Shown: piece by piece, positions 4,090-63,849 of the stretch
Layout of the letters: the number at the start of each line of letters is the position of its first letter
Position numbering within the stretch: position 1 is the first letter of the stretch
Virus record (IMG/VR): IMGVR_UViG_3300020465_001196
DNA: 64,000 bases
Source of the DNA: a virus
Taxonomy: Duplodnaviria > Caudoviricetes
Direction: 5' to 3' (one strand)
Notes under the pieces: model-generated
What the model saw: only the letters and a program-made list of their open reading frames with translations
Database searches by the model: none
What the model was told of the DNA's origin: nothing
Made by a program: the position numbers and the translations under genes

Positions 4090-4236
4090 TTAACAAGCAG
4101 GACAGTTTCTAATTTGAAATTGCCAGAAAGGTTTAAGTTCTAATCCAAGCAATAAATTATCTCCATCTATCCATTGGCCAATTACATATGGTATTATTGA
4201 TGCAACTAAAAACACAATAACAATCCACTTATTCAT
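4090..4236 (-). CDS. Small 48-aa membrane protein ending in CPAC (not in ORF track)
   Basis: Manual translation MNKWIVIVFLVASIIPYVIGQWIDGDNLLLGLELKPFWQFQIRNCPAC; start overlaps the upstream stop. Confidence 0.55.
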   Translation of the reverse strand: MNKWIVIVFLVASIIPYVIGQWIDGDNLLLGLELKPFWQFQIRNCPAC

Positions 4237-4747
4237 ATTTGGTTTTGTAAACATATCCTAAATACTTGGTATCTTTAAACTTTTCGTCCATTTGCTCATC
4301 AAACGTTCTTCCAGGAGATGACGTTTCTTTTTGTGGTTGTTCTCCTTGTATTCTACTTCTTAATTCAGTAGTACTCCAATTATGATCTCTACTGTTATAA
4401 ACTAATTCTATTCCTTTATCTATACAAATTTGCTTACCAGTAAAATCTTTATCTTTATATTCTACACCTAGTATTCTTGCGTTAATTGTTTTAGTTCTTA
4501 AAATATCTTCTACGTCACGTTCTGTTTGATATACAATAATTTCATCAACATATTTGCAACCTTCTAATTGTATTTGTCTTTCAATAATAGATTGCACAGG
4601 TTTATTTTTTGTACCTGGTCTATCAATAGTTGGGTCTGTTTGCAAACCTGCAATTAAATAATCACAACTTTCTTTTGCTTCTTTTAACATTAACACGTGG
4701 CCTGCGTGTAATAAATCAAATGTTGAAAATGTTATTCCTATCTTCAT
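4229..4747 (-). CDS. Cytidylyltransferase (TagD/glycerol-3-phosphate CT-like)
   Basis: TFSTFDLLHAGH (HxGH), LQTDP, RILGVEY, STTELR. Confidence 0.9.
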   Translation of the reverse strand: MKIGITFSTFDLLHAGHVLMLKEAKESCDYLIAGLQTDPTIDRPGTKNKPVQSIIERQIQLEGCKYVDEIIVYQTERDVEDILRTKTINARILGVEYKDKDFTGKQICIDKGIELVYNSRDHNWSTTELRSRIQGEQPQKETSSPGRTFDEQMDEKFKDTKYLGYVYKTKYE

Positions 4748-12871: not shown

Positions 12872-13138
12872 TTACCTCACTGTTCTCATTACCATTCTAT
12901 ATTGCTTATATGCTTCTTGGTAATTTTTATATGCTTCATTAACTGCTGGGTATTTTTTACGCATATATTGTTCATGTTTTGTTTTTCTTTCTACTTCAGA
13001 AACTTTACGCCTTAAACTTTGAGGATCTGTTTTTTGTGATGTTTTTACTATTGTCCTTCTAGTTATTAATGCTTCTTCTTGAATTAGTTCTTTTAGATCA
13101 TTAAATTCTTGGCGTGTTATTGTTTCTTGCTTACCCAT
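12872..13138 (-). CDS. Hypothetical coiled-coil protein, paralog B
   Basis: KHEQYMRKKYPAVNEAYKNYQ. Confidence 0.65.
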   Translation of the reverse strand: MGKQETITRQEFNDLKELIQEEALITRRTIVKTSQKTDPQSLRRKVSEVERKTKHEQYMRKKYPAVNEAYKNYQEAYKQYRMVMRTVR

Positions 13139-14624
13139 TATTATCTATCCACTTGTTGAGTAGTTTAACTCCCCAACCTGTAGCACCACCTTTTGCTGTC
13201 ATAGATCCTTTATCGTTCCAAGTAACACCTGCTATATCAATATGTGTCCAAGGAGTGTCATTTACAAATCTCTGCAAAAATTGTGCCGCTGTTGTTGAAC
13301 TCGCTTCTCCACCTTTACCTACATTGTGCATATCAGCAATAGTTGAGTCAACATATTTGTCATATCTTTCTCCTATTGGATCGCATGGTAAACGCCATAC
13401 TTTTTCATCTACTTGATGCCCTGCATCAATTAATTGCTGTGCCATTAATGAATTATTTGTAAATATACCAGCAAGTTGATCACCAAGTGCAATTGAAATT
13501 GCTCCTGTTAGTGTTGCTAAATTAATCATTGTTTTTGGCTTGTATGTTTCTTGTGTGTACCATAAGCAATCTGCTAATACTACTCTACCTTCAGCATCTG
13601 TGTTGTCAATTTCAATAGTTTGCCCACTCATAGATGTAATAACATCGCCTGGCTTGTATGCATTACTAGATACCATATTTTCTACTAATCCAATAACACC
13701 AACTGCATTAATAGGCAAATTACGTTTTGCAATACTAATCATTGTACCAACAACTACTGCTGATCCACCCATGTCGTATTTCATATCTTTTAAACCTCTC
13801 GATGGCTTAATAGAATATCCGCCTGTATCGAAACACACACCTTTACCAACAAAGGCACTAGGTGCATCACCTTTTTTGCCATTCATCCATTCCATTACAA
13901 CCATTTGAGATTCTCTAGCACTACCTTGACCTACTGCCAATAATGCACCAGCACCCATTTTTTCAAGTTCTTTTTCACCATATACTTTAACTTTAAGTCC
14001 TAAGGCTTCTAATCCTTTAACACGGTCAGCATATGATTTTGGATATAAAACATTTGATGGTTCTGAAATTAAATCTTTTGCAAATGCAATTCCTTCTACC
14101 ATTGCGTTTTTATGTGTATATTCTTCTTGTAGTTTTGTTAAATCAACACCTTCTTGACAAACATCAACATCAAAATCAGTTTCTTCTTTGTCTTTTTTAG
14201 TAAAGTATTTGTCAAACTTATATTGTTTTAACTGCATACCAAAAGCAATATTACTTACAGATGTTTTAATTTCTTTGTCAGTAAACACTAATACACGACC
14301 TTGTGTACCACGTTCTTGCAATTTAGTGTAAACTGCTCCACCAATCTTTTCTAATTTTGCATCATCTAATTTTACTGGGTCACCTACACTAATAAACAAT
14401 GCATCATGACAAGGAAGATTATTAGATGTAATAAAAAAACTATCTAAAAACTTTCCTTTAAATTTATTTTGCCCAAGTGTTTCGTTTAGTAAACCATCAG
14501 TACCTTGATCTAATATACTTGCTGATTGTGATAGCTGAATGTCATCACCTACTTTATAAAGTAAATGTACTTCACAATTACTTTCACCGCTTGATTCTAA
14601 ATCATTTATAAAATTTATTTTCAT
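13131..14624 (-). CDS. pepA: Leucyl aminopeptidase (M17, PepA)
   Basis: VGKGVCFDTGGYSIK, MKYDMGG, NTDAEGR, ATLTGA, HIDIAG. Confidence 0.96.
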   Translation of the reverse strand: MKINFINDLESSGESNCEVHLLYKVGDDIQLSQSASILDQGTDGLLNETLGQNKFKGKFLDSFFITSNNLPCHDALFISVGDPVKLDDAKLEKIGGAVYTKLQERGTQGRVLVFTDKEIKTSVSNIAFGMQLKQYKFDKYFTKKDKEETDFDVDVCQEGVDLTKLQEEYTHKNAMVEGIAFAKDLISEPSNVLYPKSYADRVKGLEALGLKVKVYGEKELEKMGAGALLAVGQGSARESQMVVMEWMNGKKGDAPSAFVGKGVCFDTGGYSIKPSRGLKDMKYDMGGSAVVVGTMISIAKRNLPINAVGVIGLVENMVSSNAYKPGDVITSMSGQTIEIDNTDAEGRVVLADCLWYTQETYKPKTMINLATLTGAISIALGDQLAGIFTNNSLMAQQLIDAGHQVDEKVWRLPCDPIGERYDKYVDSTIADMHNVGKGGEASSTTAAQFLQRFVNDTPWTHIDIAGVTWNDKGSMTAKGGATGWGVKLLNKWIDNNG

Positions 14625-15869: not shown

Positions 15870-16195
15870 TAATCTCTTGTTTGTAAATGTTCTGGTATTG
15901 TATCAACACAAAAGAATGTTAAATTTTCTTCTTCAACTGCTCTCATTACTTTACAATCTTTACCAGTTACTTTTGATATAATATGATCAGTTGTTGTTTT
16001 TTCACCATTTAATGTTTGTGCAATATCTACACCAGTTTTTGCAATAGTAATTGTTTTATAAGTTTGATAAGAACCAGATGCTGTTGCTGTTGCACTACTT
16101 CCAACTAAAAAACTAGGGGCCGCACATCCTTGTAATAATACAAGTACACTTATCCATAACAACATTAAAAATAATATTGGTCTGTCATTCATCAT
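15869..16195 (-). CDS. Putative lipoprotein
   Basis: Hydrophobic leader with lipobox LQGC. Confidence 0.65.
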   Translation of the reverse strand: MMNDRPILFLMLLWISVLVLLQGCAAPSFLVGSSATATASGSYQTYKTITIAKTGVDIAQTLNGEKTTTDHIISKVTGKDCKVMRAVEEENLTFFCVDTIPEHLQTRD

Positions 16196-16638
16196 ACTTT
16201 TCTACCTGCTGTCTTTAAATCTTCTCTTGCTACTACCATATAAGGTCCTTTATTATATGCTGGTGCAATTGAATATTGTCTACTTACTTCTAATCTTTCT
16301 TTTTCTTCACGCCAATTTCTTGTAGCACCACCACCAATTTTATTACTCAACTTAGGTTCTTGTTTGGCAGGAGTGGAAGGATTCGAACCCTCACTTACGG
16401 TTTTGGAGACCGACGTGCTAACCGTTGACACTACACTCCTAGTTGTAGTAACGGGTGGCTTGTATTTGCCACGTCTATAATCAATATAATCTTGCTCTGT
16501 CATTTGTGGTAACCCTTTGCTTTTTAAAAATTTATTTTGTTCTTTGAACCCTTGCATATAATATTCAGTTTTCTTAGGTTTAGTCTTTCGCTTCTTTGTA
16601 TTCAGAGTGGTTAAGCCACGTTCTAAGTGCATTGTCAT
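16192..16638 (-). CDS. Basic phage protein whose linker is encoded by a tRNA-Trp gene
   Basis: Open frame runs through the tRNA; protein-like N-terminus (MTMHLERGLTTLN) and C-terminus (IAPAYNKGPYMVV); sigma70 promoter upstream. Confidence 0.7.
   Translation of the reverse strand: MTMHLERGLTTLNTKKRKTKPKKTEYYMQGFKEQNKFLKSKGLPQMTEQDYIDYRRGKYKPPVTTTRSVVSTVSTSVSKTVSEGSNPSTPAKQEPKLSNKIGGGATRNWREEKERLEVSRQYSIAPAYNKGPYMVVAREDLKTAGRKV
16365..16440 (-). tRNA. trnW: tRNA-Trp(CCA)
   Basis: 76-nt cloverleaf: acceptor AGGAGUG/CACUCCU, anticodon loop CUCCAAA, GGUUCGAAUCC T-arm, encoded CCA; U27-U43 mismatch. Confidence 0.88.
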
Positions 16639-16689
16639 AGTATTAATATAACACATATTAGTCTTTTGTCAACCAAAAAGACTAATCTT

Positions 16690-18723: not shown

Positions 18724-19932
18724 TTATTTGCTAAACCTGTCTTTAATTTCTTTTAAACAAGTTAGAAAATAATCAACTTCTTTTTTTGTACTATATACAC
18801 CTGTTGATATTCTACAACTACCACTCCATCCTATTTGTCTGTGTAGCATTTGTGTACAATGATGTCCTGGGCGAGTTGCAATCCCATAAGCATCTAAAAA
18901 CATTGCCATATCTTGATGATGTACTCCATCAAGGTTAAATGAAATAACAGCACTACGTTCTTTTGTGCCAATAAATTTTACTCCATCTATTTGCGACATT
19001 TTTTCATAAGCATAATCTATTACTTCTTCTTCATGCTTAATCATTTCTTCAAATCCTGTGTCAACATAAAAGTTTAATGCTTCATGTAGCCCAACAATTT
19101 CTGTTACTGCTAATGTGCCAGCTTCCCATTTCTTAGAACCTTCTGCAAAGTCAACATTATCATGATCTACTGTTGCAACTGTTCCACCACCGCCTAGTGC
19201 AGGATCTAAATTATCAATCCATTTACGTTTTGCATACATAACACCAATACCACTTGGACCATACATCTTATGTCCACTCATTGCATAAAAGTCACAATCT
19301 AAATTTTGCATATCAACTTTAATGTGTGGTGCACCTTGTGTACCATCTACTGCAACTACAATGTTATGTTTTTTAGCAATTTCACAAACACGTTTAATGT
19401 CTATTACTTGCCCTGATGTATTAGATACATGAGTAATTGCAATAATTTTCGTACGATCAGTAATTAATGATTCTATTTCTTCAATATCGATTTGATGTTG
19501 CTCATTAACTTTTAAAAACTTTATAACTGCACCATTAAACTTACGTTGTAAATGCCATGGTATATAATTCGAATGATGTTCTATTTCTGTTGTAATAATT
19601 TCATAGCCTGGTTGCATTGTTCTACCAAATGCTGTTGCAACCATATTAATTGCTTCTGTGGCTGATTTTGTAAACACTATTTCATCTGGTTCATTTGCAT
19701 TAATAAAATCTGCAACTGCTTGTCTACTTTTTTCTACCAATGCCGTTGCATGATTTGATAATTCGTGTATGCTTCTTCCAATACTTGAATATTCTTCTGT
19801 CATAAACTTATTCATTCTATCAATTACACATTGTGGTTTTTGTGAAGAATTAGCACTATCAAAGTATACCAATGGCTTACCGCTGGGTAGCATTTTGTTT
19901 AGTATCGGAAAATGTTTTCTTATATGTTCCAT
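18724..19932 (-). CDS. sufS: Cysteine desulfurase, SufS type
   Basis: VYFDSANSSQKP, EHHSN, VDGTQ, SGHKMYGPSG (PLP Lys), RPGHHC (catalytic Cys). Confidence 0.95.
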   Translation of the reverse strand: MEHIRKHFPILNKMLPSGKPLVYFDSANSSQKPQCVIDRMNKFMTEEYSSIGRSIHELSNHATALVEKSRQAVADFINANEPDEIVFTKSATEAINMVATAFGRTMQPGYEIITTEIEHHSNYIPWHLQRKFNGAVIKFLKVNEQHQIDIEEIESLITDRTKIIAITHVSNTSGQVIDIKRVCEIAKKHNIVVAVDGTQGAPHIKVDMQNLDCDFYAMSGHKMYGPSGIGVMYAKRKWIDNLDPALGGGGTVATVDHDNVDFAEGSKKWEAGTLAVTEIVGLHEALNFYVDTGFEEMIKHEEEVIDYAYEKMSQIDGVKFIGTKERSAVISFNLDGVHHQDMAMFLDAYGIATRPGHHCTQMLHRQIGWSGSCRISTGVYSTKKEVDYFLTCLKEIKDRFSK

Positions 19933-19980
19933 TGTTATTATATTTACGTCAATTTAATTGTGAATAACTTATAGTTAATT

Positions 19981-20056
19981 TGGTGGAGGATAGCGGGATC
20001 GAACCGCTGACCTCCTGAATGCAAATCAGGCGCTCTCCCAGCTGAGCTAATCCCCC
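19981..20056 (-). tRNA. trnA: tRNA-Ala(UGC)
   Basis: G3-U70 pair, anticodon loop UUUGCAU, T-arm, CCA. Confidence 0.97.
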
Positions 20057-20060
20057 ACAG

Positions 20061-20216
20061 TTAGCATAACTCATAAGCAGGATTCTGTTCATTGCTATCA
20101 TTTACCTTTGCGTCCTACCCTGTGTCCCGGCAGTTGTTGACACTCTACTTGGACTTGCACATATCTGCCTGTGTCCTGACTTTCCTCTGTTTCCAGCGAT
20201 AGCCCGGTTATGCTAA
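20061..20216 (-). ncRNA. rnpB: Minimal RNase P RNA (catalytic domain only)
   Basis: GAGGAAAGUCAGGA and AACAGAAUCCUGCUUA form P4 with bulged U; P1, P2, P3, P5, P6, P15 (GGU loop) and P16 can all be built; CR IV AGGUAAAUGA present. Confidence 0.88.
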
Positions 20217-20218
20217 TG

Positions 20219-20252
20219 TATTTACTATAATACATTTCTATAATTTTGTCAA
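20219..20252 (-). promoter_or_regulatory. Promoter for the RNase P RNA-tRNA-Ala unit
   Basis: TTGACA(20252-20247)-N17-TATAGT(20229-20224), overlapping a TAAATA at 20224-20219. Confidence 0.75.
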
Positions 20253-20255
20253 TTG

Positions 20256-20471
20256 TTATTTGCTGTGTGGCGGAAGTTTCTTTTCAACCCACCAAATGTG
20301 TTTACGTGTAATTGGATCATATTTTCTAACTCTCAATTTATCGTTTTTCTTTTCGCCTTTGGTTGGTTTTTTAGCATAATAATAATATGCATGATCTTTC
20401 ATTTTAGAATCTTCTGGTACTAATCTAACTTTTAAATATGGTTTTTTTGTTTTAGTTTTATTTTTTGCCAT
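20256..20471 (-). CDS. rpmG: 50S ribosomal protein L33, Zn-free type
   Basis: KVRLV, KLRVRKYDPITRKHIWWVEKK; no Cys. Confidence 0.88.
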   Translation of the reverse strand: MAKNKTKTKKPYLKVRLVPEDSKMKDHAYYYYAKKPTKGEKKNDKLRVRKYDPITRKHIWWVEKKLPPHSK

Positions 20472-20700
20472 TTGGTTTGTTTTTATCAGAAATCAGCTTA
20501 TCTAATTTCTTTTCAACTCGCTTGTTTAGTTTATGAACTTCTTTATTTAATTCTTCTAAATGAGCAATGTGCTTTTGAAAATCTTGTAAACTAATAGTAT
20601 GTAATAATAATTTTTCTTCTAGTTCTTTTTGTGTGATTAATTTTTTAAGATACTTTGGGTGTCTTAATAAATCTATTACGTTACTCTTTGTTTTGCTCAT
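20458..20700 (-). CDS. Hypothetical coiled-coil protein
   Basis: Coupled ORF. Confidence 0.5.
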   Translation of the reverse strand: MSKTKSNVIDLLRHPKYLKKLITQKELEEKLLLHTISLQDFQKHIAHLEELNKEVHKLNKRVEKKLDKLISDKNKPNGKK

Positions 20701-21625
20701 ATGTTCTTTTTACAACTTTGCCTATGTTTACTCTATTATACAATTTATCTCTATGGAATTGCAACCAATTTTCACCACCTAATGCAATGTGGATACAATT
20801 ACTTGGCGTTAAATTGTATGTTTCACATACTTTAGTTTGTGCTTTACTATATTTATTCCACTGATGATCTGGACCAAAATGTGTCATAAGTTCTAAACTT
20901 ATTCTAGTGTTAAGGTGGCAACCATGAGTCCAATCTGCTTGTAAAGCCAATCTATTTTTACGTTCTCCTGATGTATAATCTATTTTTCCATGCCTACTAA
21001 ACCTTATACCAGCCCTATAATCGCCGGTACACAATCCTTTGGTTGTAGAGAAAGCAACTTCTTCTATTGCTGGATGTGATAAGTCTATGTTTATATTTGC
21101 ACACGTTCCAAACCAAGCCATGTCAACAAAAACAGGCACGTTAAGATCTTGTGCGGCATCAAATATTCTATGAGTAGAATGATGCATCATTCCTGTACCA
21201 CTAAATGGACAACTTACAATAACTGCATCTCCTTTTTGCAAAGGTCTATCATCAATAAAATTAGATTGGTTATCATCAAAAAATTTATGTACATCTCTAT
21301 TATAAGGATACTCACCTCTAAACATTCTTAAAGTTCTGCCTTCTTCTAATATTCTATAATGAAACTCGTCTAAAGATTGTGTTACTCCAACTGAAGGGAA
21401 ACGATAGTTGAACGTTTCTAAACCGCGAATACAATTTAATGTACTACTACCTACCCAGTCAGGATAGTAATCAACAAATTTCTGTTGACATTGCAAATCT
21501 TCTTTTAATGCTGTATTAAAAAAGTCTTTATCGAGCAAATATGATAAAAACTCTCCATTATAAATTGAATTTCCGTTTCGCTTAAACTCTGTGTTTGATT
21601 CTGTGTATTGTGATTTTTCTACCAT
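20681..21625 (-). CDS. PLP-dependent transferase-like protein (fold type I)
   Basis: VSCPFSGTG, VFVDMAW (DxA), AFSTTKGL (SxxK), RAGIRF. Confidence 0.65.
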   Translation of the reverse strand: MVEKSQYTESNTEFKRNGNSIYNGEFLSYLLDKDFFNTALKEDLQCQQKFVDYYPDWVGSSTLNCIRGLETFNYRFPSVGVTQSLDEFHYRILEEGRTLRMFRGEYPYNRDVHKFFDDNQSNFIDDRPLQKGDAVIVSCPFSGTGMMHHSTHRIFDAAQDLNVPVFVDMAWFGTCANINIDLSHPAIEEVAFSTTKGLCTGDYRAGIRFSRHGKIDYTSGERKNRLALQADWTHGCHLNTRISLELMTHFGPDHQWNKYSKAQTKVCETYNLTPSNCIHIALGGENWLQFHRDKLYNRVNIGKVVKRTYEQNKE

Positions 21626-21951
21626 TATAAATCTTGTGCTACTGTTATTGTCATTCCATCCATTTCTGGATTAACTTGAATTTGACATCCAAGTCTTGAT
21701 TCGTCAGTAACTCCTTCAGCCATCTCTATCATATCTTTTTCATCTTCAGTAAAATCGTTTACTGCCCATTTAGAAGTTGATTCAATATATACATGGCAAG
21801 TGGCACAGGCACAACAACCTCCACAATCACCAAAATGATCCATTTGAATTTCTTTTATTATAACGTCTTTTAAAGTTTTACCAATTTCTGCATCTATAGT
21901 ATGCTTTTGACCTTTTCTGTCAATTAAATGAAGTGTTACTGTATCACTCAT
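21625..21951 (-). CDS. fdx: 2Fe-2S ferredoxin, ISC/adrenodoxin type
   Basis: CGGCCACATCHV and SRLGCQI. Confidence 0.95.
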   Translation of the reverse strand: MSDTVTLHLIDRKGQKHTIDAEIGKTLKDVIIKEIQMDHFGDCGGCCACATCHVYIESTSKWAVNDFTEDEKDMIEMAEGVTDESRLGCQIQVNPEMDGMTITVAQDL

Positions 21952-23539: not shown

Positions 23540-24466
23540 TTAGAATGTAAATTTAAAGCCTGTAGAATAACTGTCTGTATCTAAAGTAGATCCAGTATTA
23601 TTTGCGTGTTGATATTCAACATACGTAGATAATTTTCCAGTTACATTGTACGATGCACCGCCAGTATAGTATGAAGAAGAATCTTCAATTTTACCATAAC
23701 CTGCTGATACTGTTAATTTATCAGAGGCTGAATATGAAGCTACTACTTCATTGCCAGTAACATCTGTTGCGGCATCCTTTAACGTGTAAGTATAACCTAC
23801 TGTCATTGGAAGACCAATTGATGAAGCATCTGTTGTAAACCCTACACCATAATAGTTAATGTCATTAACTTTATCGTTAGATATACCACCTGATACCTTT
23901 ACACCTTCGACTTGATATGTTATTGTACCTTCTTGTACATCAACACCATCTTCTCCAGTTGATCCATCAATTTTAGCTAAACCATCAATTGTAATTGGGC
24001 CTAAATTATTTGAATACGCAATTGTATTTGTATCTCTTACAAATAAATTTTGATCTGCGTTCGAACCATAGACTTCAAATACATCTGTATGACCACTTAC
24101 ATTAGATGTAAATGGAGATGCTTGACGGCCTGCTGATAACGATCCAACCATACCAAAGTCTAAACCTACGTAGGCTAGACGAGAGTCTAGTGGATTATTA
24201 TTTGAGTCGTCAGTATCAACACCAAGTTCTAGTTTAGCAAAGCCAGTAATGCCTTCACCAATGCCTTCACTTGCATCAATACCAATCAACGATGAGTTGT
24301 TCTCAGCTTTCATATATGATTTACCAGAGCTATTTTCATCGTTACTTAATTTGTAATTAAACGTTCCGTAAATTTTTGTTTCTACGGCTTCTGCTTCACT
24401 ACAAGCTGTTAACGAAAATATCGCTACTAGCGAACCTATGATTGCTGTGCTTAAAAATTTTCTCAT
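23540..24466 (-). CDS. Gram-negative general porin
   Basis: Signal peptide, IYGTFN, SRLAYVGL, GRQ, alternating beta-strand pattern, C-terminal GFKFTF. Confidence 0.85.
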   Translation of the reverse strand: MRKFLSTAIIGSLVAIFSLTACSEAEAVETKIYGTFNYKLSNDENSSGKSYMKAENNSSLIGIDASEGIGEGITGFAKLELGVDTDDSNNNPLDSRLAYVGLDFGMVGSLSAGRQASPFTSNVSGHTDVFEVYGSNADQNLFVRDTNTIAYSNNLGPITIDGLAKIDGSTGEDGVDVQEGTITYQVEGVKVSGGISNDKVNDINYYGVGFTTDASSIGLPMTVGYTYTLKDAATDVTGNEVVASYSASDKLTVSAGYGKIEDSSSYYTGGASYNVTGKLSTYVEYQHANNTGSTLDTDSYSTGFKFTF

Positions 24467-37136: not shown

Positions 37137-38189
37137 TTATTTATTTTTACTACCAAACCGTTTTAGAATATTATTGTAAATTTTATCTTTGCTTTTTATA
37201 CTAACAATATCAGTTGGCAAACAATTTCCGTTATACTCACACACTTCTGCATTTTGTAATAAATCCCAATCTTCATTATACGCATTACCAAGTTTATGTA
37301 CATCATAACAAGCATAACCTCTAAACATAGTTCCATCAAAATCCATCGATACACTTGTATAACCTGAATTACAATAAAACTTATAATAGTTTCTTATATT
37401 ATGCACTACTGTTCTTAATTGATCAACTAGTTCATGTTTATTGCCTTCATCATCAACCCAAATAATTGCAGGTTTATGTTGATCATTATGAGCTTCTTTC
37501 ATATATTTGATCATTTCATCATCATACAAATTATCAACCATTGTATCGTTGTTATCTCTAATATGTTTTAAAACTATTGGTACACCTATTTGCCTAATAA
37601 TTTCACTTTGCTTTGCTTGTTCCCAAAACATTTCTTTTGTCATTACTAAATTTACACTTACATTAATATTATTTTCTTTAAGAAATTTTAACTTATCAAC
37701 ATAATCATTAAATTTTTTATCTGTATTAACAAATTCTTTGTGTAATGTTGTACTAATAGTAAAATCTATATCATGTTTTTTTATAATATCAACTAATTCT
37801 TTTAAAAAATCTAACTTTCTAGAAAGATTTGTAGTTACTGATATATGTGTACTAATATCATATTTTGTAGCACCTTTTATAATATCAATTATTTCAGGAT
37901 GCCATAATGGTTCACCTCCACTATATAAAAGATCTAAAATTTTTATATTTTCTGTTTTACAATGATCAACTATTTTTTGCTGTACTTTAGATAATACTTT
38001 CCAAGGAATATAATCCATTTTATCTTTTGAATTATATCCGTCCCAACAATATGAACATTTATAATTACAATAACGAATTATATTTGATGAAAATATAAAG
38101 AAAAACTTTTTGTTAAAAAAATCTCTATGACCTATTGTGTGCAACTGCTTCATCATTACCTTTACCAATCTCTTGTTTGTATGCATCAA
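37137..38189 (-). CDS. Radical SAM protein with C-terminal auxiliary-cluster (SPASM/twitch-like) Cys
   Basis: CNYKCSYC, SGGEP, TTNLS, CNSG...GYAC...C...C. Confidence 0.88.
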   Translation of the reverse strand: MMHTNKRLVKVMMKQLHTIGHRDFFNKKFFFIFSSNIIRYCNYKCSYCWDGYNSKDKMDYIPWKVLSKVQQKIVDHCKTENIKILDLLYSGGEPLWHPEIIDIIKGATKYDISTHISVTTNLSRKLDFLKELVDIIKKHDIDFTISTTLHKEFVNTDKKFNDYVDKLKFLKENNINVSVNLVMTKEMFWEQAKQSEIIRQIGVPIVLKHIRDNNDTMVDNLYDDEMIKYMKEAHNDQHKPAIIWVDDEGNKHELVDQLRTVVHNIRNYYKFYCNSGYTSVSMDFDGTMFRGYACYDVHKLGNAYNEDWDLLQNAEVCEYNGNCLPTDIVSIKSKDKIYNNILKRFGSKNK

Positions 38190-57168: not shown

Positions 57169-58386
57169 TTATTTTTTTGAATTAATTATGTCTTCTAGTC
57201 CAGGAGCAATATCAAGGATATTTTGCTTACGTGTTTTGTCTAAATGTTCAGTATATTCAATAAATTTATCTGTATGTTGCGACCAATCTTCGTCCATCAT
57301 ATAATTTATTAAGCCTTGTACTTTTGGCTTGTCTATGTATTTTTGCAAGTCTTCTGCAACACATTCCTTTAAGTGTAATGGTAACACTCTAACATTTAAG
57401 TAATCTGGATGATCAAGTATGTTTAAATATGGAAAATAATTATACTGTTCCAAATACTTAAACAAATCAGATATATCAAGAATATTATATATTTGTACAG
57501 TAGTATGAACTTGTACTCTCATTTTACCTTCTTTTTCCATTTCATAAAATGCTGATAAGTTTTTGTGTACTGATTTCCAATTTGTTGGATATCTAATATA
57601 TCTGTTTAGTTCATCATATCCATCTATAGATGCGTTGATCTTAATCTTTTTAAAGTGTTTCCAATATTCAATCATCTTTGGTGGAATATTAGTTAAGTTG
57701 GTATTGTACTTTAAAATAATATCTTTTGCTTTGTCTAATTCAATACAACGATCAAACAATTTATATTGTTCAAGTGCAAGTGTTGGCTCACCACCTGTTA
57801 AGTATATTTCCTCTACACTATTAATAATTGGCATTAAATTTTCCCAAGTCTTTTCATTAGTGGGCCAATTCATATGTTTTAATCTTGTACGTTCTTCTTC
57901 TGGTATATCTGTTCCATCATATGATGTTGTTGTATTCCATTCTTCTGTCCATTGATTACTTGCCCATGGATTACACATTCTACATTTTAAATTACATAAA
58001 TTACCTAAACGCAAATCAACATAACCTACAGTTAAAGGAGCATTACCTTCTTTGTCTGTGTTAGAAAGTGCACCTTCTATAAAATGTGAATATGCTTCAT
58101 TAAAACTTTGTCTTGCTGATTTAATATCACTTGCTTCTTCTCTCCAACAACGTTGACACATCGTTGGCTTTTCTTCATTTAGTAACTGCAATCTTAAATC
58201 CTTATATGTTTCTGAATTCCACATTTCTTTTACATCAGAATTATAAATTTTATAAGGAGCACCAGTTTTATCTAAAATAAAATTTTTGCCAGGGGTTGAA
58301 TTACAACATACTCTATAATTTCCACTAGAATTGGTTGCTAAATGCATCCATGGTAATATACAAAATGTTTTAGACTCTTTCTTCAT
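57169..58386 (-). CDS. Radical SAM protein with N-terminal twitch-like domain
   Basis: FCILPW...RVCC...CQRC; CNLKCRMC; TGGEP; NTN; SIDG. Confidence 0.9.
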   Translation of the reverse strand: MKKESKTFCILPWMHLATNSSGNYRVCCNSTPGKNFILDKTGAPYKIYNSDVKEMWNSETYKDLRLQLLNEEKPTMCQRCWREEASDIKSARQSFNEAYSHFIEGALSNTDKEGNAPLTVGYVDLRLGNLCNLKCRMCNPWASNQWTEEWNTTTSYDGTDIPEEERTRLKHMNWPTNEKTWENLMPIINSVEEIYLTGGEPTLALEQYKLFDRCIELDKAKDIILKYNTNLTNIPPKMIEYWKHFKKIKINASIDGYDELNRYIRYPTNWKSVHKNLSAFYEMEKEGKMRVQVHTTVQIYNILDISDLFKYLEQYNYFPYLNILDHPDYLNVRVLPLHLKECVAEDLQKYIDKPKVQGLINYMMDEDWSQHTDKFIEYTEHLDKTRKQNILDIAPGLEDIINSKK

Positions 58387-59671
58387 TTACTTCCTCGAAT
58401 AGTTCTGCTAACTGCGGAACAATTTTTTTAATATCTGTTTTTCGTAAACTATCAACATCACGTGTAAACTGAACAAATTCTTTTATACGTTGCTTATTAT
58501 ATGTATCATTGCTTTGTAAATTCTTCATAATATTGCCAAATCCTATATCCCCTTGACTAAAAACTCCTTCATTTGGATTTCTATCTTGTGGCCAATATTC
58601 ACCTTGTGGCAACTCAGCATCTTTCATTATTTCATATGCTTTTAATTTTAATCTATTAGGTAATATTTGAAAATTTAAATGTGGTGGATTAACAACAACA
58701 TTTTTAAAATAAATTTCATTTGTTGGTTTACGTATTTTTAAATACCATTTCCATATATCTGATAAATTAAAAATATTATATATTTGTACTGTTACTGTAT
58801 AAATTATAACCGTGTTTGGTAATCTATTAAATTCAAGTATGTTATTTTCTAATTGTTCTATAGTGAAGTTATCTCCTCCACGTATATATTGATACAACTC
58901 TCCTGTTCCTTCTAAACTAATATGCAACTTAACTAATTTAAAATGTTTAGCAATATTCATTAATCTTTCATTCATATATGTTCCGTTAGTATTAATATCA
59001 AGCATAACATTTTTTGCAATATCCCATTCAATAAATTGTTCCATTAATTGATAATTTTGTTCTTCCATTAATGGCTCACCACCTGTTAATTTTAAAAATT
59101 GCAAATCTTTAAAATATTCTCTTTTTTCTAAAACATTTTTAATTACTTCAAAATCAACTTTTGAATATTTTCCAGTTTTACGTTCAGGCATCCAACTAGG
59201 GGTTATTTTTGCTAACTGAATTTCTTCTTTTACCCAACTACTAGAAACTTGTCCATTGCACATCCTACATTTTAAATTACATTTGTTAGATGAGTTAATT
59301 TCTAAATACCAAATATTTGGTTTATCAAATGGATTATATGTTGCTGTTTTTAAAAGTTCAGATGGTATATTTCTATAAAAGTATTGACGTCTTGAACTTC
59401 CTACTGTTTCTTCTTTTTTAATACAACTAGCACATATTTCTTTATGTGGTAATCCTGCTGTCCATGACTTACGTAAAGATTGTGCTCTAGGAGAATCCCA
59501 TAACTCTGTTAAAGTTTTTTCATATATACTTCCATATGGAGAAAATGATACAGCATCAGCATATACTAAACCATCCCATTCGATAGTTAGACTATGCCAA
59601 GGTGCTACACATTTTTTAGTGATTGTTTTGTGCCAATCCCAATCACGTTTTTTCCATTCTTGATTGTCCAT
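58370..59671 (-). CDS. Radical SAM protein with N-terminal twitch-like domain
   Basis: CVAPW...CASC; CNLKCRMC; TGGEP; NTNGT; SLEG..YQYIRGG. Confidence 0.9.
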   Translation of the reverse strand: MDNQEWKKRDWDWHKTITKKCVAPWHSLTIEWDGLVYADAVSFSPYGSIYEKTLTELWDSPRAQSLRKSWTAGLPHKEICASCIKKEETVGSSRRQYFYRNIPSELLKTATYNPFDKPNIWYLEINSSNKCNLKCRMCNGQVSSSWVKEEIQLAKITPSWMPERKTGKYSKVDFEVIKNVLEKREYFKDLQFLKLTGGEPLMEEQNYQLMEQFIEWDIAKNVMLDINTNGTYMNERLMNIAKHFKLVKLHISLEGTGELYQYIRGGDNFTIEQLENNILEFNRLPNTVIIYTVTVQIYNIFNLSDIWKWYLKIRKPTNEIYFKNVVVNPPHLNFQILPNRLKLKAYEIMKDAELPQGEYWPQDRNPNEGVFSQGDIGFGNIMKNLQSNDTYNKQRIKEFVQFTRDVDSLRKTDIKKIVPQLAELFEEVNEERV

Positions 59672-60714
59672 TAGAAATAATTTTCCTGCTCTCCTTTACG
59701 TCTTACATCTGCTGTTAAACAATGTACTCCGCCATCCCAAAAATATTGGTGTCTAAATTTCCAATATATAGGTGTTACTCCATGCTGTTCTAGTTTTGCA
59801 AATACTTCTTTATCTGTTCCTGTGCAAATAACTTTATCTTCTGATACACTTAACATATTAACATCGAATACAGTTTCATCAACATAGCCAATCCAATGTG
59901 ATAACCATTTTTCAATATAATCTTTATAAAAATGTTCTTTACGTGTTTGTTTAAAATCTTCAGGAAATTTTGTTCCTGATTCTGTTATAATACAATCCCA
60001 AGATTTTAACTTTTCTGGTATCCATGCTTTTTTCCAAGTAACAAGTAAACCTGGTTTAATTAATGCTACTTTACCATCAGCATGACCACCAACTGGTATT
60101 TCATTAAACGTAAATTCAGGTAATTGTCTTTTATACCATTTTAGTCCTTGTTCTGTACCTTTGCCTTTTATAGGATCTTTTTGATTTGATTGTGAATAAA
60201 ATATATCTTTACCACACTTTATTAAATTAGCATTATGAAAAAGTATTTCGCCTTGATTATAATAATCTTCATATGTTTTTTGATTAAGATTTGGCTTAGG
60301 CATTGATATCCATTCCGCCCCTTTATTATGATACTCTTTTAATATATGTGATGTGTTCCAATTTTCAAAATACCTTGTTCTATCTTTTGTGTATGCTTCT
60401 ATAATTTTATTACCATAAAATCCTAATATATCTCTTGGCTGTAAAGGTTGGTTTGCATATTCAATATCAAATTCACCCATATCATACTTTGCAAGTGGAT
60501 CTTGCATTACTTTAGGACGTTGTACTACTACACCTTCTTTTTGTAATATATCAACAAGTACTTCTAAATCTTCTGCTGTTTCTGTAAACACTCTTTTTAA
60601 AAGATCTTTAGCTTCTTGGTTAAAATCACTTTTATCAAAACAATCAGGTGCGTATGTATTACCTACTATAACTTCTTCTAATTGTTGAAACTCTGAATAT
60701 GCTTTTACTATCAT
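59671..60714 (-). CDS. Amidinotransferase (glycine/inosamine-phosphate amidinotransferase family)
   Basis: LEEVIVG, QPRD, HADG, FDVNMLS, WDGGVHCLTAD (catalytic Cys). Confidence 0.9.
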   Translation of the reverse strand: MIVKAYSEFQQLEEVIVGNTYAPDCFDKSDFNQEAKDLLKRVFTETAEDLEVLVDILQKEGVVVQRPKVMQDPLAKYDMGEFDIEYANQPLQPRDILGFYGNKIIEAYTKDRTRYFENWNTSHILKEYHNKGAEWISMPKPNLNQKTYEDYYNQGEILFHNANLIKCGKDIFYSQSNQKDPIKGKGTEQGLKWYKRQLPEFTFNEIPVGGHADGKVALIKPGLLVTWKKAWIPEKLKSWDCIITESGTKFPEDFKQTRKEHFYKDYIEKWLSHWIGYVDETVFDVNMLSVSEDKVICTGTDKEVFAKLEQHGVTPIYWKFRHQYFWDGGVHCLTADVRRKGEQENYF

Positions 60715-61277
60715 TTTTCAAATTCCTCACTATCATATTTGCTGTCTTTGTATCTTCTTTTTACAATAGCATCATAATATTTTTTATCCCAATTATCATA
60801 ATACTTTGTGTTCCTATGAATCCACTCTGACTTTTCATTTAAATCTGCAAGTCCTTGTATTTGTATAATTGCTAAACCTTTATTACCAGATCCTAATCCA
60901 GGAATAAGTTTATCTGTATTTTTTTCAACTCCTACAGAACCTTGTTTTTCTTCTGATTTATAAGATGTATAAATGTATAAATCATTAGCAACTGCTGTTG
61001 GTTGATTTTCATTTTCCCATTCTTCTAATTGTTCTAATGAATAATCGTTAGGGTCACCTATACACAATACCAATTGTTTTTCTTCTGGATAATTTTCAAT
61101 AGTTTCATCTGCAATTTTAAACATATCTTTTTTAACCCATTTAACTTCAACTTCATTACGTTTGAATCCCATTTTTGCAAATGGACATATAGCCATACCG
61201 TCTAATTCTTTACGTGGCTTTGTAACGTGGTCTTTCATTTCTTCCCACTTTTTATGTAGATCAGATTGTTCCGCCAT
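60711..61277 (-). CDS. Hypothetical protein with CPFAK motif
   Basis: L.GMAICPFAK...; C-terminal YYDNWDKKYY. Confidence 0.6.
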   Translation of the reverse strand: MAEQSDLHKKWEEMKDHVTKPRKELDGMAICPFAKMGFKRNEVEVKWVKKDMFKIADETIENYPEEKQLVLCIGDPNDYSLEQLEEWENENQPTAVANDLYIYTSYKSEEKQGSVGVEKNTDKLIPGLGSGNKGLAIIQIQGLADLNEKSEWIHRNTKYYDNWDKKYYDAIVKRRYKDSKYDSEEFEK

Positions 61278-62730
61278 CTTCTAATTCTTTCTCAGTTTTT
61301 TTATCAACCATTTCACCTGTGTTGACTTCAACCATATTATCTTTAGATTCATCTAGTAAGTCTGCCATCTCTGGAAATACTTTAGTAAAGTCAGTTCCTC
61401 TTTGCTTATCAAATTTTACTATGTATTCTCTAAACTGTGGCATACGTTGTGACCAATCTTCACTCATCATAAATTTGATCATGCCTTGTAATCTTTTAAT
61501 TCCGTAACTTGCTTCCATAAATGCTTCTTTGTTTGGTGCCCCTGATAATTTCCAATTGTTTAATAACCATGGATAAAATTCTTCATATTTTTGTTTTGTT
61601 TTATCTTTCATCCATTGTGGCAATGCTTTTACATTTAGATGTCCAGGCCAATATACAAAATGATAATTAATCATTCCTGCTCCAAAAGGCCATATGTTAA
61701 TTTTTTTAAAATTTTGCTCCCATTTCCATTTAATAAAATCTGGTATATAATAAATGTTTAGTGCCTGTACTGCACACGCCACAGTAACTTCAACTTTATC
61801 TTCTGTATTATCTAACAAATGAAATTGCTTAACTGTATTATCCCAGTCTGCTGGAAAACGTATATAACGATTCATTTCTTCAATTGAGTCTACACTATAA
61901 TGAAACCTTACTCTTTTAAAATGACTCCATAATTCAAATAATCTATCTGGCATTTCAACACCATTTGAATTATAACGTAATTCTATTTTGTGTGCATATC
62001 CACGTTTTATAACTTCTTCTAATAATGTATAATGTTCTTCAATAATTGTTGACTCACCACCTGCAAAGTATAACTGATACATATGAGGTATTTGTTCGTA
62101 TAACTGATCCCAAAACGTTGGATTATTTTTATGCCAGTTATATGTAGCACCATGCATTTTTCCTTTATTGTCCCATCCCATTGTTTGCTTTAATTCTTTA
62201 TTTTCAATAGTAGGGTAAACTTCTGTCCAATCTTTAATCCATAGTGATGAATCATGTGGGCTACACATAATACATTTTAAATTACATTTAGATCCCATAC
62301 GTAGATCTAAGTATCTAATTTTTGGAGGAATAGAACCATCTTTTGCTGTTTCACCAATAATTTCATCTATGTCATATCTGTTTAACCAGTATTCAGTTTC
62401 CCACATACGTTTTGAATTATGTCCTGCGTCTTCTTCTTTGTAACATTTTAAACAAGCAGGTGGTTTATCTCCGTTTAACATTTGTAAACGAACATTTTTC
62501 ATATAGTCATTATTCCATGCTTCCATTAAATTTGAATTATTTAAGTTTGCAGGTTTACCACTTTGTGTTTTTAAAACACCTACCTGACCGCCATGTTTTT
62601 TATCATTAGTTGCACCTACTGAACTTGCGTTCGCTGTACAGCATACACGCATATTACCGTCTGGTCTAGTTGATAAATGCATCCATGGTAAAGCACAAAA
62701 AGTTTTTGATGGTAGTTTATTATTGCTCAT
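61261..62730 (-). CDS. Radical SAM protein with N-terminal twitch-like domain
   Basis: FCALPWMHL...RVCC...CLKC; CNLKCIMC; AGGE; NSNG; YIRFP. Confidence 0.9.
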   Translation of the reverse strand: MSNNKLPSKTFCALPWMHLSTRPDGNMRVCCTANASSVGATNDKKHGGQVGVLKTQSGKPANLNNSNLMEAWNNDYMKNVRLQMLNGDKPPACLKCYKEEDAGHNSKRMWETEYWLNRYDIDEIIGETAKDGSIPPKIRYLDLRMGSKCNLKCIMCSPHDSSLWIKDWTEVYPTIENKELKQTMGWDNKGKMHGATYNWHKNNPTFWDQLYEQIPHMYQLYFAGGESTIIEEHYTLLEEVIKRGYAHKIELRYNSNGVEMPDRLFELWSHFKRVRFHYSVDSIEEMNRYIRFPADWDNTVKQFHLLDNTEDKVEVTVACAVQALNIYYIPDFIKWKWEQNFKKINIWPFGAGMINYHFVYWPGHLNVKALPQWMKDKTKQKYEEFYPWLLNNWKLSGAPNKEAFMEASYGIKRLQGMIKFMMSEDWSQRMPQFREYIVKFDKQRGTDFTKVFPEMADLLDESKDNMVEVNTGEMVDKKTEKELEDGGTI

Positions 62731-62739
62731 TTTATATAT

Positions 62740-63849
62740 TTACCTTGCCGTTGTAACGAAGTTATCTTCAAACTGTGCACCAAAAGGATCAAACTCTGTA
62801 CCGCATTTAACTGAACACACTTTTAATTTTCCATCTCCGCCTTCACAAGAATCTTTCTTCCAACTTGATTTTATGTTGTTAAAAAATTCTCCTTCTAGTA
62901 CTTTTTTAAATCCATGTTGTAAAACTGATAACTCATCTAAACCTCCAACCTCTTCTATAAATCTCCAAATTTGATTTTGTCCTGGCTTCTCCCACCATTT
63001 ATACATTTGTCCTGCTACCCAACAACAAGGCATTAGATGTCCTGTAGCACTAACATAAACATTCATATCTTTTAATACTTTACAATTAATTCTTGCTTGG
63101 TTGTAATACTCATCCATAGAACCATATTTTTCTACAAGTGGATCTAATTTTTTAAGAGCTTTATTTACATACTTTTCATCTGGCTTTGTTAGTTTTTGTG
63201 TTTCTTTACCTTTACGGTTTACACCTTGGTGTTCTTCTTTACCTTTTGCTTTTACATTACTAAAAAACCTACCAGTTTTTTTACTCATAAATTTTTCAAA
63301 TCCCATACGTTTCGATAATGCTTCTGCTTCTTCTACTTGATGTTGATTATGACCAAATATTAAATAATCCCATCTTGCTCTACCACCAGCATCAATAAAT
63401 GCTTGTGATGAATCCATACATATATCCCAATTAACATTTTGTCTATATAAATGGTTAGTATCTTTTAATCCGTCAAAACTAAAAATAACATGACCTTTAC
63501 GTCCTATTACTTTTGCAAGTTCACGCCACCATTCAGGTTTTTTAGCACCAGCATTTGTGTTCATGCTTAACCATATATTTGAATTTTGTTTTCGTAAATA
63601 TTCCATTACTTCTAATGAATCTTTAGCCACTACAGGATCTCCTAAATTACCACACATAAACAAACTATCTAATTGTTTTACTAAATCAGGTGTAAAAATT
63701 TTTTTACAATCCTCAAGTGATAGCTCATCTAAGTTTATATTAGGATTAAGTTCTCCACCATTTATATTACGATCACATTGCAAACAAGCGGCTTGGCATT
63801 TTGCAGTGATTTCTAAGTGGACTGTTCTTATGTCGCTGTACCTGTACAT
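62740..63849 (-). CDS. Radical SAM protein, paralog of 49696..50709
   Basis: CQAACLQC, CGNLGDP, NTNAG, FSFDG; CKV...MPCC...CSVKC. Confidence 0.9.
   Translation of the reverse strand: MYRYSDIRTVHLEITAKCQAACLQCDRNINGGELNPNINLDELSLEDCKKIFTPDLVKQLDSLFMCGNLGDPVVAKDSLEVMEYLRKQNSNIWLSMNTNAGAKKPEWWRELAKVIGRKGHVIFSFDGLKDTNHLYRQNVNWDICMDSSQAFIDAGGRARWDYLIFGHNQHQVEEAEALSKRMGFEKFMSKKTGRFFSNVKAKGKEEHQGVNRKGKETQKLTKPDEKYVNKALKKLDPLVEKYGSMDEYYNQARINCKVLKDMNVYVSATGHLMPCCWVAGQMYKWWEKPGQNQIWRFIEEVGGLDELSVLQHGFKKVLEGEFFNNIKSSWKKDSCEGGDGKLKVCSVKCGTEFDPFGAQFEDNFVTTAR

Follow-up and report, generated by a model that had tools for sequence, protein, structure and literature searches.

A miniature RNase P RNA with the catalytic domain only in a marine jumbo phage

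The 64,000-nucleotide (nt) viral DNA stretch IMGVR_UViG_3300020465_001196 (IMG/VR; Caudoviricetes), called the window here in its full length, carries on its minus strand, at positions 20061-20216, a gene for a 156-nt miniature RNase P RNA that consists of the catalytic domain (C-domain) only. RNase P RNA, which trims tRNA precursors, is among the universal ribozymes. In bacteria its division into two domains, one for catalysis and one for T-loop recognition, is regarded as constant, and versions reduced to the C-domain are, to our knowledge, known solely as crippled laboratory constructs. That the RNA of the window is a real, selected homologue of RNase P RNA is practically certain, and its gene is a genuine, expressed gene of a marine jumbo phage of ~330 kb.

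Resemblance of the RNA to the bacterial type A model is far beyond chance. Scanning of 381 nt with cmscan in E-value mode aligned positions 20058-20215 (minus strand) with RF00010 (RNaseP_bact_a) globally, over model positions 1-367, at 71.0 bits (E 9e-22), and bacterial type A was the best match within the Rfam clan. In this alignment the 158 model positions of the specificity domain (S-domain; P7-P14 and conserved regions CR-II and CR-III) are reduced to 8 nt, and the 24 positions of P18 to none. CR-I, CR-IV, CR-V, the joining region J5/15 and the GGU of L15 all agree with the RF00010 consensus. P17 is absent as well, and P16 is closed by a 12-nt loop. The gathering threshold of RF00010 is 100 bits, and the mini RNAs of the window (71.0 bits) and of two large related contigs, G001 (73.6 bits) and G002 (77.5 bits), fall below it; the shortfall of the window RNA comes from the missing half of the model and not from a poor fit of the remainder. 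Standard annotation overlooks the gene for this reason; a default Rfam scan of the window at the gathering threshold reported six tRNAs only. A model built for the family itself (R1) scores the RNA at 187.6 bits as the sole significant copy in the window. Single-sequence minimum free energy folding (z = -2.7) recovered P1 and, in part, P2 and P3; it missed the pseudoknots and is uninformative alone.

Homologues were collected with the pattern GAGGAAAGTCNGG-N(70-100)-ACAGAANCC, which is too short to span CR-I to CR-V of a full-length RNase P RNA. This spacing is 84-90 nt in the family, versus a median of 304 nt (218-388) in 77 cellular RNAs. The IMG/VR scan returned seven contigs, all seven of them true homologues, and metagenome contigs yielded ~30 more after full-length RNAs had been removed. 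Most of the 120 cellular genome matches and ~90 metagenome matches were full-length RNAs that contain ACAGAANCC a second time, within the S-domain; such false positives were removed by requiring the 3' strand of P4. Divergent members will have been missed, because the family was gathered by exact patterns. As the first pattern fixed the P4 strands, the viral scan was repeated with anchors on J15/16, L15 and CR-IV; the same seven contigs were found, with P4 intact in every one. None of the 120 cellular genome-contig matches is a cellular counterpart of the family, L126 alone being weakly similar at 33 bits. In a blastn search of the locus against 50,697 GenBank phage records only the tRNA-Ala part matched, and no close copy was found in an isolated phage.

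The structure is maintained across the family by compensatory change. Alignment A2 contains 27 distinct sequences, the window RNA and 26 marine viral or metagenome homologues that are 57-99% identical to it. The proposed structure gives standard pairs in 94.2% of 1201 cells, and only 29-38% of cells are paired in the control, in which the 3' partners were slid by 1-3 columns. Both sides have changed in 23 of the 45 pairs, and no column shuffle matched the observed covariation score. P1, P2, P3 and P16 covary heavily; for example, P16 is paired in 99.3% of cells with three of its five pairs compensatory, and one P15 pair occurs as C-G, U-A and A-U. The P6 pseudoknot occurs across the family in five versions, all complementary (GGCAG/CUGCC, GGUGG/CCACC, GGUAG/CUACC, GUUGAG/CUCAAC and GCUGG/CCAGC). 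It was analysed sequence by sequence, since MAFFT placed P6 of the group B members one column out of register; P1 lengths of group B rest on L191 and on inspection, the automatic P1 finder having failed for most of the group. RNAalifold, run without a model, recovered P1, P2, P3, most of P5, and P16. Its alternative pairing GGAC/GUCC, which joins the 5' end of P4 with the 5' strand of P15, was rejected, as its columns, where they vary, have one-sided changes only, whereas those of P15 are compensatory.

P4 of the window RNA is AGUCAGGA/UCCUGCU with a bulged U, and it is formed and invariant in all 27 sequences (CR-I GAGGAAAGUC with CR-V ACAGAA and the bulged U). GGGUA, which includes the L15 GGU, is likewise invariant. 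More generally, CR-I, J5/15, J15/16, GGGUA, CR-IV and CR-V vary little or not at all, in contrast to the helices. Invariant joining regions at the active site and at the substrate 3' end, set among drifting helices, are the mark of a working ribozyme and would argue for catalysis, not mere protein binding. The gene is also conserved above its surroundings, being 91.5% identical to that of G001 when most flanking segments are 77-85% identical. Within the family P3 is longer in other members than in the window RNA. The most divergent member, L128 (metagenome contig Ga0310345_10000986, 5323-5503, minus strand), is 169 nt long and has a longer P3 and L16.

The RNA had been proposed in a sequence-only reading, and its helices and motifs (P1-P6, P15, P16, GGU, CR-IV and the AUA) are all present on the minus strand where that reading had placed them (Table 1). 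Its central claim, a bacterial-type RNase P RNA lacking the S-domain and P18, is upheld by the global Rfam alignment, by covariation in the 27 sequences and by the phage context, as well as by the complete relative G001, which lacks RnpA, HARP and a full-length RNase P RNA. Of the checks it had suggested, comparison with Rfam models gave the RNaseP_bact_a match of 71.0 bits in E-value mode, and the search for covariation in viral and metagenome homologues gave covarying helices, with P6 in its five complementary versions. The two compensatory changes that it had noticed in P4 are real relative to the bacterial consensus, and are common to many other reduced phage RNase P RNAs. Borrowing of host RnpA, which that reading had also put forward, would agree with all the observations, whereas relaxed, non-tRNA specificity is supported by none of them.

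Table 1. Features of the miniature RNase P RNA gene and its immediate surroundings (window coordinates)
Feature	Position	Strand	Basis or remarks
Ribosomal protein bL33 homologue, directly upstream gene	20256-20471	-	PF00471, 33.5 bits (cut-off 25)
-35 hexamer TTGACA	20247-20252	-	Promoter scan
-10 hexamer TATAGT	20224-20229	-	Promoter scan; ends 7 nt before P1
P1 5' strand UUAGCAUAAC	20207-20216	-	Pairs with 20061-20070 GUUAUGCUAA; both-sided changes at 9 of 10 pairs across the family
P2 5' strand GCUAUCG	20197-20203	-	Pairs with 20094-20100 UGAUAGC; 5 of 7 pairs compensatory, 98.4% of cells paired
P3 CUG-GAAA-CAG	20187-20196	-	3-bp stem with GAAA loop; 100% of cells paired, 2 of 3 pairs compensatory
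CR-I AGGAAAGUCAGGA, including P4 5' strand with bulged U	20174-20186	-	RF00010 consensus match; invariant in the family
P5 hairpin CACA/UGUG	20158-20173	-	8-nt loop GGCAGAUA
P6 5' strand GGCAG	20165-20169	-	Within the P5 loop
AUA, sole remnant at the place of P7-P14	20162-20164	-	Within the P5 loop
P15-P16 module	20112-20154	-	P15 GUCC/GGAC, P16 GUGUC/GACAC, J15/16 AAGUAGA, J16/15 AGGGUA
P6 3' strand CUGCC	20129-20133	-	In the P16-closing loop (pseudoknot)
L15 GGU	20117-20119	-	Within J16/15 AGGGUA
CR-IV AGGUAAAUGA (J18/2 equivalent, P18 deleted)	20098-20107	-	RF00010 alignment
CR-V ACAGAA and P4 3' strand UCCUGCU	20076-20088	-	RF00010 alignment and family alignment
Linker CUGU, P1 to tRNA-Ala	20057-20060	-	4 nt; 3-7 nt in other members
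tRNA-Ala(UGC), CCA encoded, co-oriented	19981-20056	-	ARAGORN and Rfam

The gene has a promoter of its own and is followed immediately by a tRNA gene. The promoter is of sigma-70 type, matches the consensus at 11 of 12 positions with a 17-nt spacer, and is the best site within 19000-21500. Judged by spacing, transcription is predicted to start at about A20217, 1 nt before P1. Comparable promoters of the TTGACA/TATAAT type lie at the same distance in every homologue. A tRNA gene begins 3-7 nt after P1 in 26 of the 27 variants, and in other lineages it encodes tRNA-Ala, tRNA-Asp, tRNA-Ser, or a tRNA-Gln that heads a multi-tRNA cluster. No terminator was found between the RNA gene and tRNA-Ala, and the two are probably co-transcribed. 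On the simplest reading they form a compact unit, in which the 5' end of the RNA is set by the transcription start and the 3' end by the RNase P cut at the tRNA.

The RNA gene is represented in RNA libraries. All public runs listed as sharing words with the locus are marine metagenomes, and 20 of those listed are RNA libraries. In metatranscriptome X1, contigs without a single mismatch cover 20052-20178 and 20149-20267, and none of the X1 contigs covers the flanking coding stretches 19700-19978 and 20289-20600. Coverage of the RNA gene without the flanking open reading frames (ORFs) speaks against mere carry-over of DNA. Another member is represented in X23 by a contig (matching L167) that runs from the mini RNA through the linker into tRNA-Ser.

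Phage origin is evident from the surrounding genome. The window has 32% G+C and 28 ORFs of at least 250 amino acids (aa), 27 of them on the minus strand, with PHROG matches to virion and tail proteins and many auxiliary genes. It is syntenic with the IMG/VR contig G001, at 77-95% nucleotide identity over aligned segments (most 77-85%). G001 has 328,149 bp, direct terminal repeats and a CheckV completeness of 100%. Exactly one mini RNA is present in G001 and one in G002, the second large contig; neither a full-length RNase P RNA nor a HARP-type protein-only RNase P was found in either. RnpA is also missing from both, PF00825 giving no match at E<=1 in six frames while control genomes were matched. 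Across lineages no RnpA-like ORF lies within 6 kb of the RNA gene, where only PAAR-like and staphylococcal-nuclease-like proteins are common to some lineages. The CCA end is encoded in all six tRNA genes of the window and in all 15 of G001 (21 of 21), which fits the retained L15 GGU, as CCA is the pairing partner of GGU in bacterial RNase P. The nearest isolated phages are <50% identical in DNA ligase and UV-endonuclease, the two proteins compared, and the lineage is therefore uncultured. A Gram-negative porin (Porin_4, 74.6 bits) is encoded at 23540-24466 of the minus strand, with a possible function in superinfection or nutrient uptake; together with the sigma-70 promoters, this gene hints at a host that is Gram-negative and does not belong to the Bacteroidota.

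The mini RNA is proposed to be a trans-acting RNase P RNA, made of the catalytic domain only, that assembles with the RnpA of the host, and this reading is held to be somewhat better than evenly probable. What is inferred here is that the RNA is catalytic, that it works with host RnpA and that its substrate is tRNA. The regions contacted by RnpA in published structures of bacterial holoenzymes are all present in the mini RNA. The isolated C-domain of Escherichia coli cleaves substrates without the S-domain, ~120-fold slower and ~500-fold less efficiently; it is inactive without P15-17, relies on a 'P6-mimic', and can dispense with P18 once the S-domain is gone (PMC5839562). The parts kept and lost in the phage RNA match these requirements of a stand-alone type A C-domain, and this match is what points to a trans-acting RNase P RNA working with RnpA. 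Host RNA polymerase would start at the sigma-70 promoter ~1 nt before P1 and continue into tRNA-Ala. An RNase P cut at the 5' end of the tRNA, made at first by the host enzyme, would then set free the 156-nt RNA, extended by 4 nt at its 3' end. The RNA would fold into P1-P2-P3, P4, P5, the P6 pseudoknot and P15-P16, and bind host RnpA through the retained surfaces of CR-IV, CR-V, P3 and P15. The complex would cleave phage pre-tRNAs, recognising the acceptor stem, the encoded 3' CCA, which would pair with L15 GGU, and, by means of RnpA, the 5' leader; these contacts would stand in for the missing T-loop binding site. The wider proposal, that marine jumbo phages build a hybrid RNase P from a 156-nt S-domain-less ribozyme and host RnpA with recognition of the acceptor end and CCA only, is given about an even chance. 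In a bolder form, the RNA would need no protein for its activity, or would act in cis on the tRNA to which it is fused.

Several points weigh against a trans-acting enzyme with host RnpA. C-domains on their own catalyse poorly in vitro (PMC5839562), and the phage RNA would therefore have to be helped by a cofactor or be expressed at a very high level. The P3 of the window RNA is a stem of only 3 bp, and G replaces E. coli A248 in the members of group B, so that RnpA and the -1 residue may be contacted differently. A divergent protein partner encoded by the phage itself may be invisible to Pfam. The family member L128 has no downstream tRNA, and a ribosome-binding site and an ORF are found there instead. 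The RNA-library evidence consists of assembled contigs, not of ends, strand or abundance, and one X1 contig reaches 50 nt upstream of the predicted start, an extension that could be read-through or DNA.

Other functions can be assigned to the same RNA. It might act as a sponge or specificity switch, a weak or inert RNA that captures host RnpA and so stops or redirects host RNase P. The strong promoter, the retention of the RnpA-contacting CR-IV, CR-V and P15 and the lack of a phage RnpA in the relatives G001 and G002 would suit such a role, and a decoy role has been considered for the RNase P-like RNA of a poxvirus (PMC3001073). It is nevertheless rated as rather unlikely, as the elements that serve substrate binding and chemistry (L15 GGU, the bulged U of P4, J5/15 and P6) are invariant or covarying although protein binding does not need them, and blocking RNase P would harm a phage whose own 15 tRNAs (in G001) need the enzyme. 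Alternatively, the ribozyme might cleave in cis the tRNA tethered 3-7 nt downstream, the tether replacing the S-domain. The close spacing in 26 of 27 variants and the X23 metatranscriptome contig that spans the ribozyme-tRNA junction speak for a self-maturing unit of this kind, and tethered C-domain/pre-tRNA constructs are catalytic (cited in PMC5839562). The geometry, however, is awkward: the linker leaves the distal end of a P1 of 9-14 bp, in the P1-P4 stack the active site is found at the end formed by P4, and 3-4 nt would have to span ~30 Å, judged by the bacterial RNase P-tRNA structure. L128 lacks the tRNA, only one of the 15 tRNAs of G001 is tethered, and adjacency is more simply explained by 3'-end formation through RNase P, which makes cleavage in cis unlikely.

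Loss of the S-domain removes the main tRNA-specific contact, and an RNA without a T-loop binding site might instead cut polycistronic phage transcripts, host mRNAs or tRNA-like structures. Bacterial RNase P does cleave 4.5S RNA and tmRNA. Hairpin-CCA models are also cleaved (model substrates in PMC5839562). There is, however, no candidate target, and tRNA is indicated both by the match of GGU with the CCA of phage tRNAs and by the position of the gene, which lies next to tRNA genes or heads them, so that a different substrate appears quite improbable. A functionless RNA, either a decaying relic of a captured host rnpB or a chance resemblance, would agree with the score under the Rfam gathering threshold. 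It is contradicted by compensatory changes across lineages of 57-99% identity and by conservation above that of the flanks, and the gene has a consensus promoter of its own, one copy per genome (G001 and G002) and a presence in RNA libraries; this explanation can hardly be entertained.

The family is part of a wider set of reduced RNase P RNAs. Sixteen further viral contigs from IMG/VR (L281-L296; 12-225 kb, G+C from 35% to 68%) encode RNAs in which CR-I and CR-V are spaced 100-160 nt apart and one or two hairpins are left at the site of the S-domain, many of them among tRNA genes. Phages thus hold a continuum of S-domain reduction, in which the family of the 156-nt RNA is the smallest form found in the scans. 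Still shorter forms, with a spacing of 40-70 nt, gave three pattern matches, none of them real. The P4 variant CAGGA/UCCUG occurs in 13 of 23 CR-I matches in reduced viral RNAs (L001-L007 and L281-L296) and in 1 of 121 in cellular genome contigs (L008-L127), a biased sample, and may mark a phage-specific lineage of RNase P RNA.

Two stretches in metagenome-assembled genomes (MAGs) were noted besides. In an Elusimicrobia MAG from groundwater (JACRNU010000015.1; L126, 3930-4087, minus strand), ~158 nt with 65% G+C score 33 bits with the mini-RNA model, with CR-I, CR-IV and CR-V intact and ~79 nt between the P4 strands. This may be another S-domain-less RNase P RNA, either in a cellular bin or on a phage contig binned with it. 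A Saprospiraceae MAG (JANQQI010000061.1; L078, ~4209-4340, minus strand) has both P4 strands 80 nt apart and a CR-IV-like AGAUAAAUGAUAG; P5, P15 and a GGU arrangement are not recognisable in this still more divergent, RNase P-like element.

Relatives of the window phage carry several genes of the translation apparatus. A C-terminal domain of IF3 is encoded in G001 (C1:275072-275326) and G002 (C1:181826-182074), at ~70 bits in frames of 188-190 aa. The bL33 gene lies ~520 nt upstream of the mini RNA in G001 and ~60 kb away in G002, so its adjacency is not conserved. In the tRNA clusters Arg-Gln and Ile-Val-Asp of G001 (100065-100216 and 276800-277031) single-nucleotide spacers follow the encoded CCA, and the 5' leader of a downstream tRNA is therefore the upstream tRNA itself. 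In the window, a 154-aa ORF at 16192-16656 (minus strand) runs through tRNA-Trp (16365-16440, minus strand); it has no Pfam match, and may be spurious or a real overlap. The window also holds a large set of auxiliary metabolic genes. These include clustered radical SAM/SPASM enzymes (37137-38189 and 57169-63849, minus strand), a cysteine desulfurase (18724-19932), a 2Fe-2S ferredoxin (21625-21951) and an M17 aminopeptidase (13131-14624).

A naturally selected C-domain of 156 nt indicates that the irreducible bacterial core is P1-P6 and P15-P16, not P18 or the S-domain, in agreement with deletion studies. It offers a compact, naturally selected scaffold for structural biology and ribozyme engineering. 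It would also extend the translation genes of large phages (tRNAs, ribosomal proteins, IF3) to tRNA maturation, and it raises the question of how a virus might hijack RnpA, a subunit of an essential host ribonucleoprotein. If the hybrid enzyme with host RnpA is real, the RNA would be without precedent as a functional RNase P RNA encoded by a virus, and no naturally evolved RNase P RNA of the bacterial type would be smaller.

In searchable full texts, which leave most subscription journals outside reach, no phage-encoded RNase P RNA and no bacterial-type RNase P RNA without the S-domain is described. The sole viral precedent found there is the RNase P-like RNA of orthopoxviruses (camelpox), which shows some similarity in secondary structure, but does not process pre-tRNA in vitro (PMC3001073). 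The phage RNA resembles it in being virus-encoded and RNase P RNA-like, but differs in being an unambiguous sequence homologue with all catalytic motifs. With bacterial type A RNA (RF00010; E. coli M1 RNA, rnpB) it shares the topology of P1-P6 and P15-P16, the sequences of CR-I, CR-IV and CR-V, the bulged U of P4, the L15 GGU and the P6 pseudoknot. It differs from type A in its length (156 nt versus ~350-400), in the lack of the S-domain (P7-P14, CR-II and CR-III), P17 and P18, in a P3 of just 3 bp, in two A-U pairs in P4 (CAGGA/UCCUG), and in being encoded by a phage whose relatives have no rnpA.

Yeast mitochondrial RNase P RNAs (RPM1) can be of comparable or smaller size; they keep P1, P4 and the core of CR-I and CR-V, have lost P2, P3, P5, P6 and P15, and need a large protein of their own. 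Unlike them, the phage RNA keeps the whole core of the bacterial C-domain. The label 'ultra-minimal' given in the sequence-only reading therefore holds among bacterial-type RNAs, but not against all RNase P RNAs, some of the yeast mitochondrial ones being about as small.

Archaeal type T RNAs (Pyrobaculum and relatives; Rfam RNaseP-T), of ~200 nt, are likewise natural RNase P RNAs, described with a degenerate S-domain. P6 is modelled as present in type T, and P18 is absent (PMC5839562; PMC13462272). Type T RNAs are, however, archaeal in sequence, have Rpp30, Pop5 and L7Ae as partners and form the only RNase P of the cell, whereas the phage RNA is smaller, has a sequence of bacterial type A and is the product of an accessory viral gene. 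Its best clan match is type A, and it is surrounded by a sigma-70 promoter, a Gram-negative porin and phage genes, which places it outside type T. Engineered C-domains (Eco CP RPR and its P18 deletion; the Bacillus subtilis C-domain) share with it P1-P5, a P6 'mimic', P15 and P16, and the lack of the S-domain. Their losses of activity are ~120- to 500-fold in E. coli (PMC5839562) and ~25,000-fold in B. subtilis. Unlike these constructs, the phage RNA is a product of natural selection, and its helices covary; P17 and most of P3 are missing from it as well. The mini RNA descends from bacterial type A RNase P RNA, and converges on archaeal type T and on the engineered C-domains.

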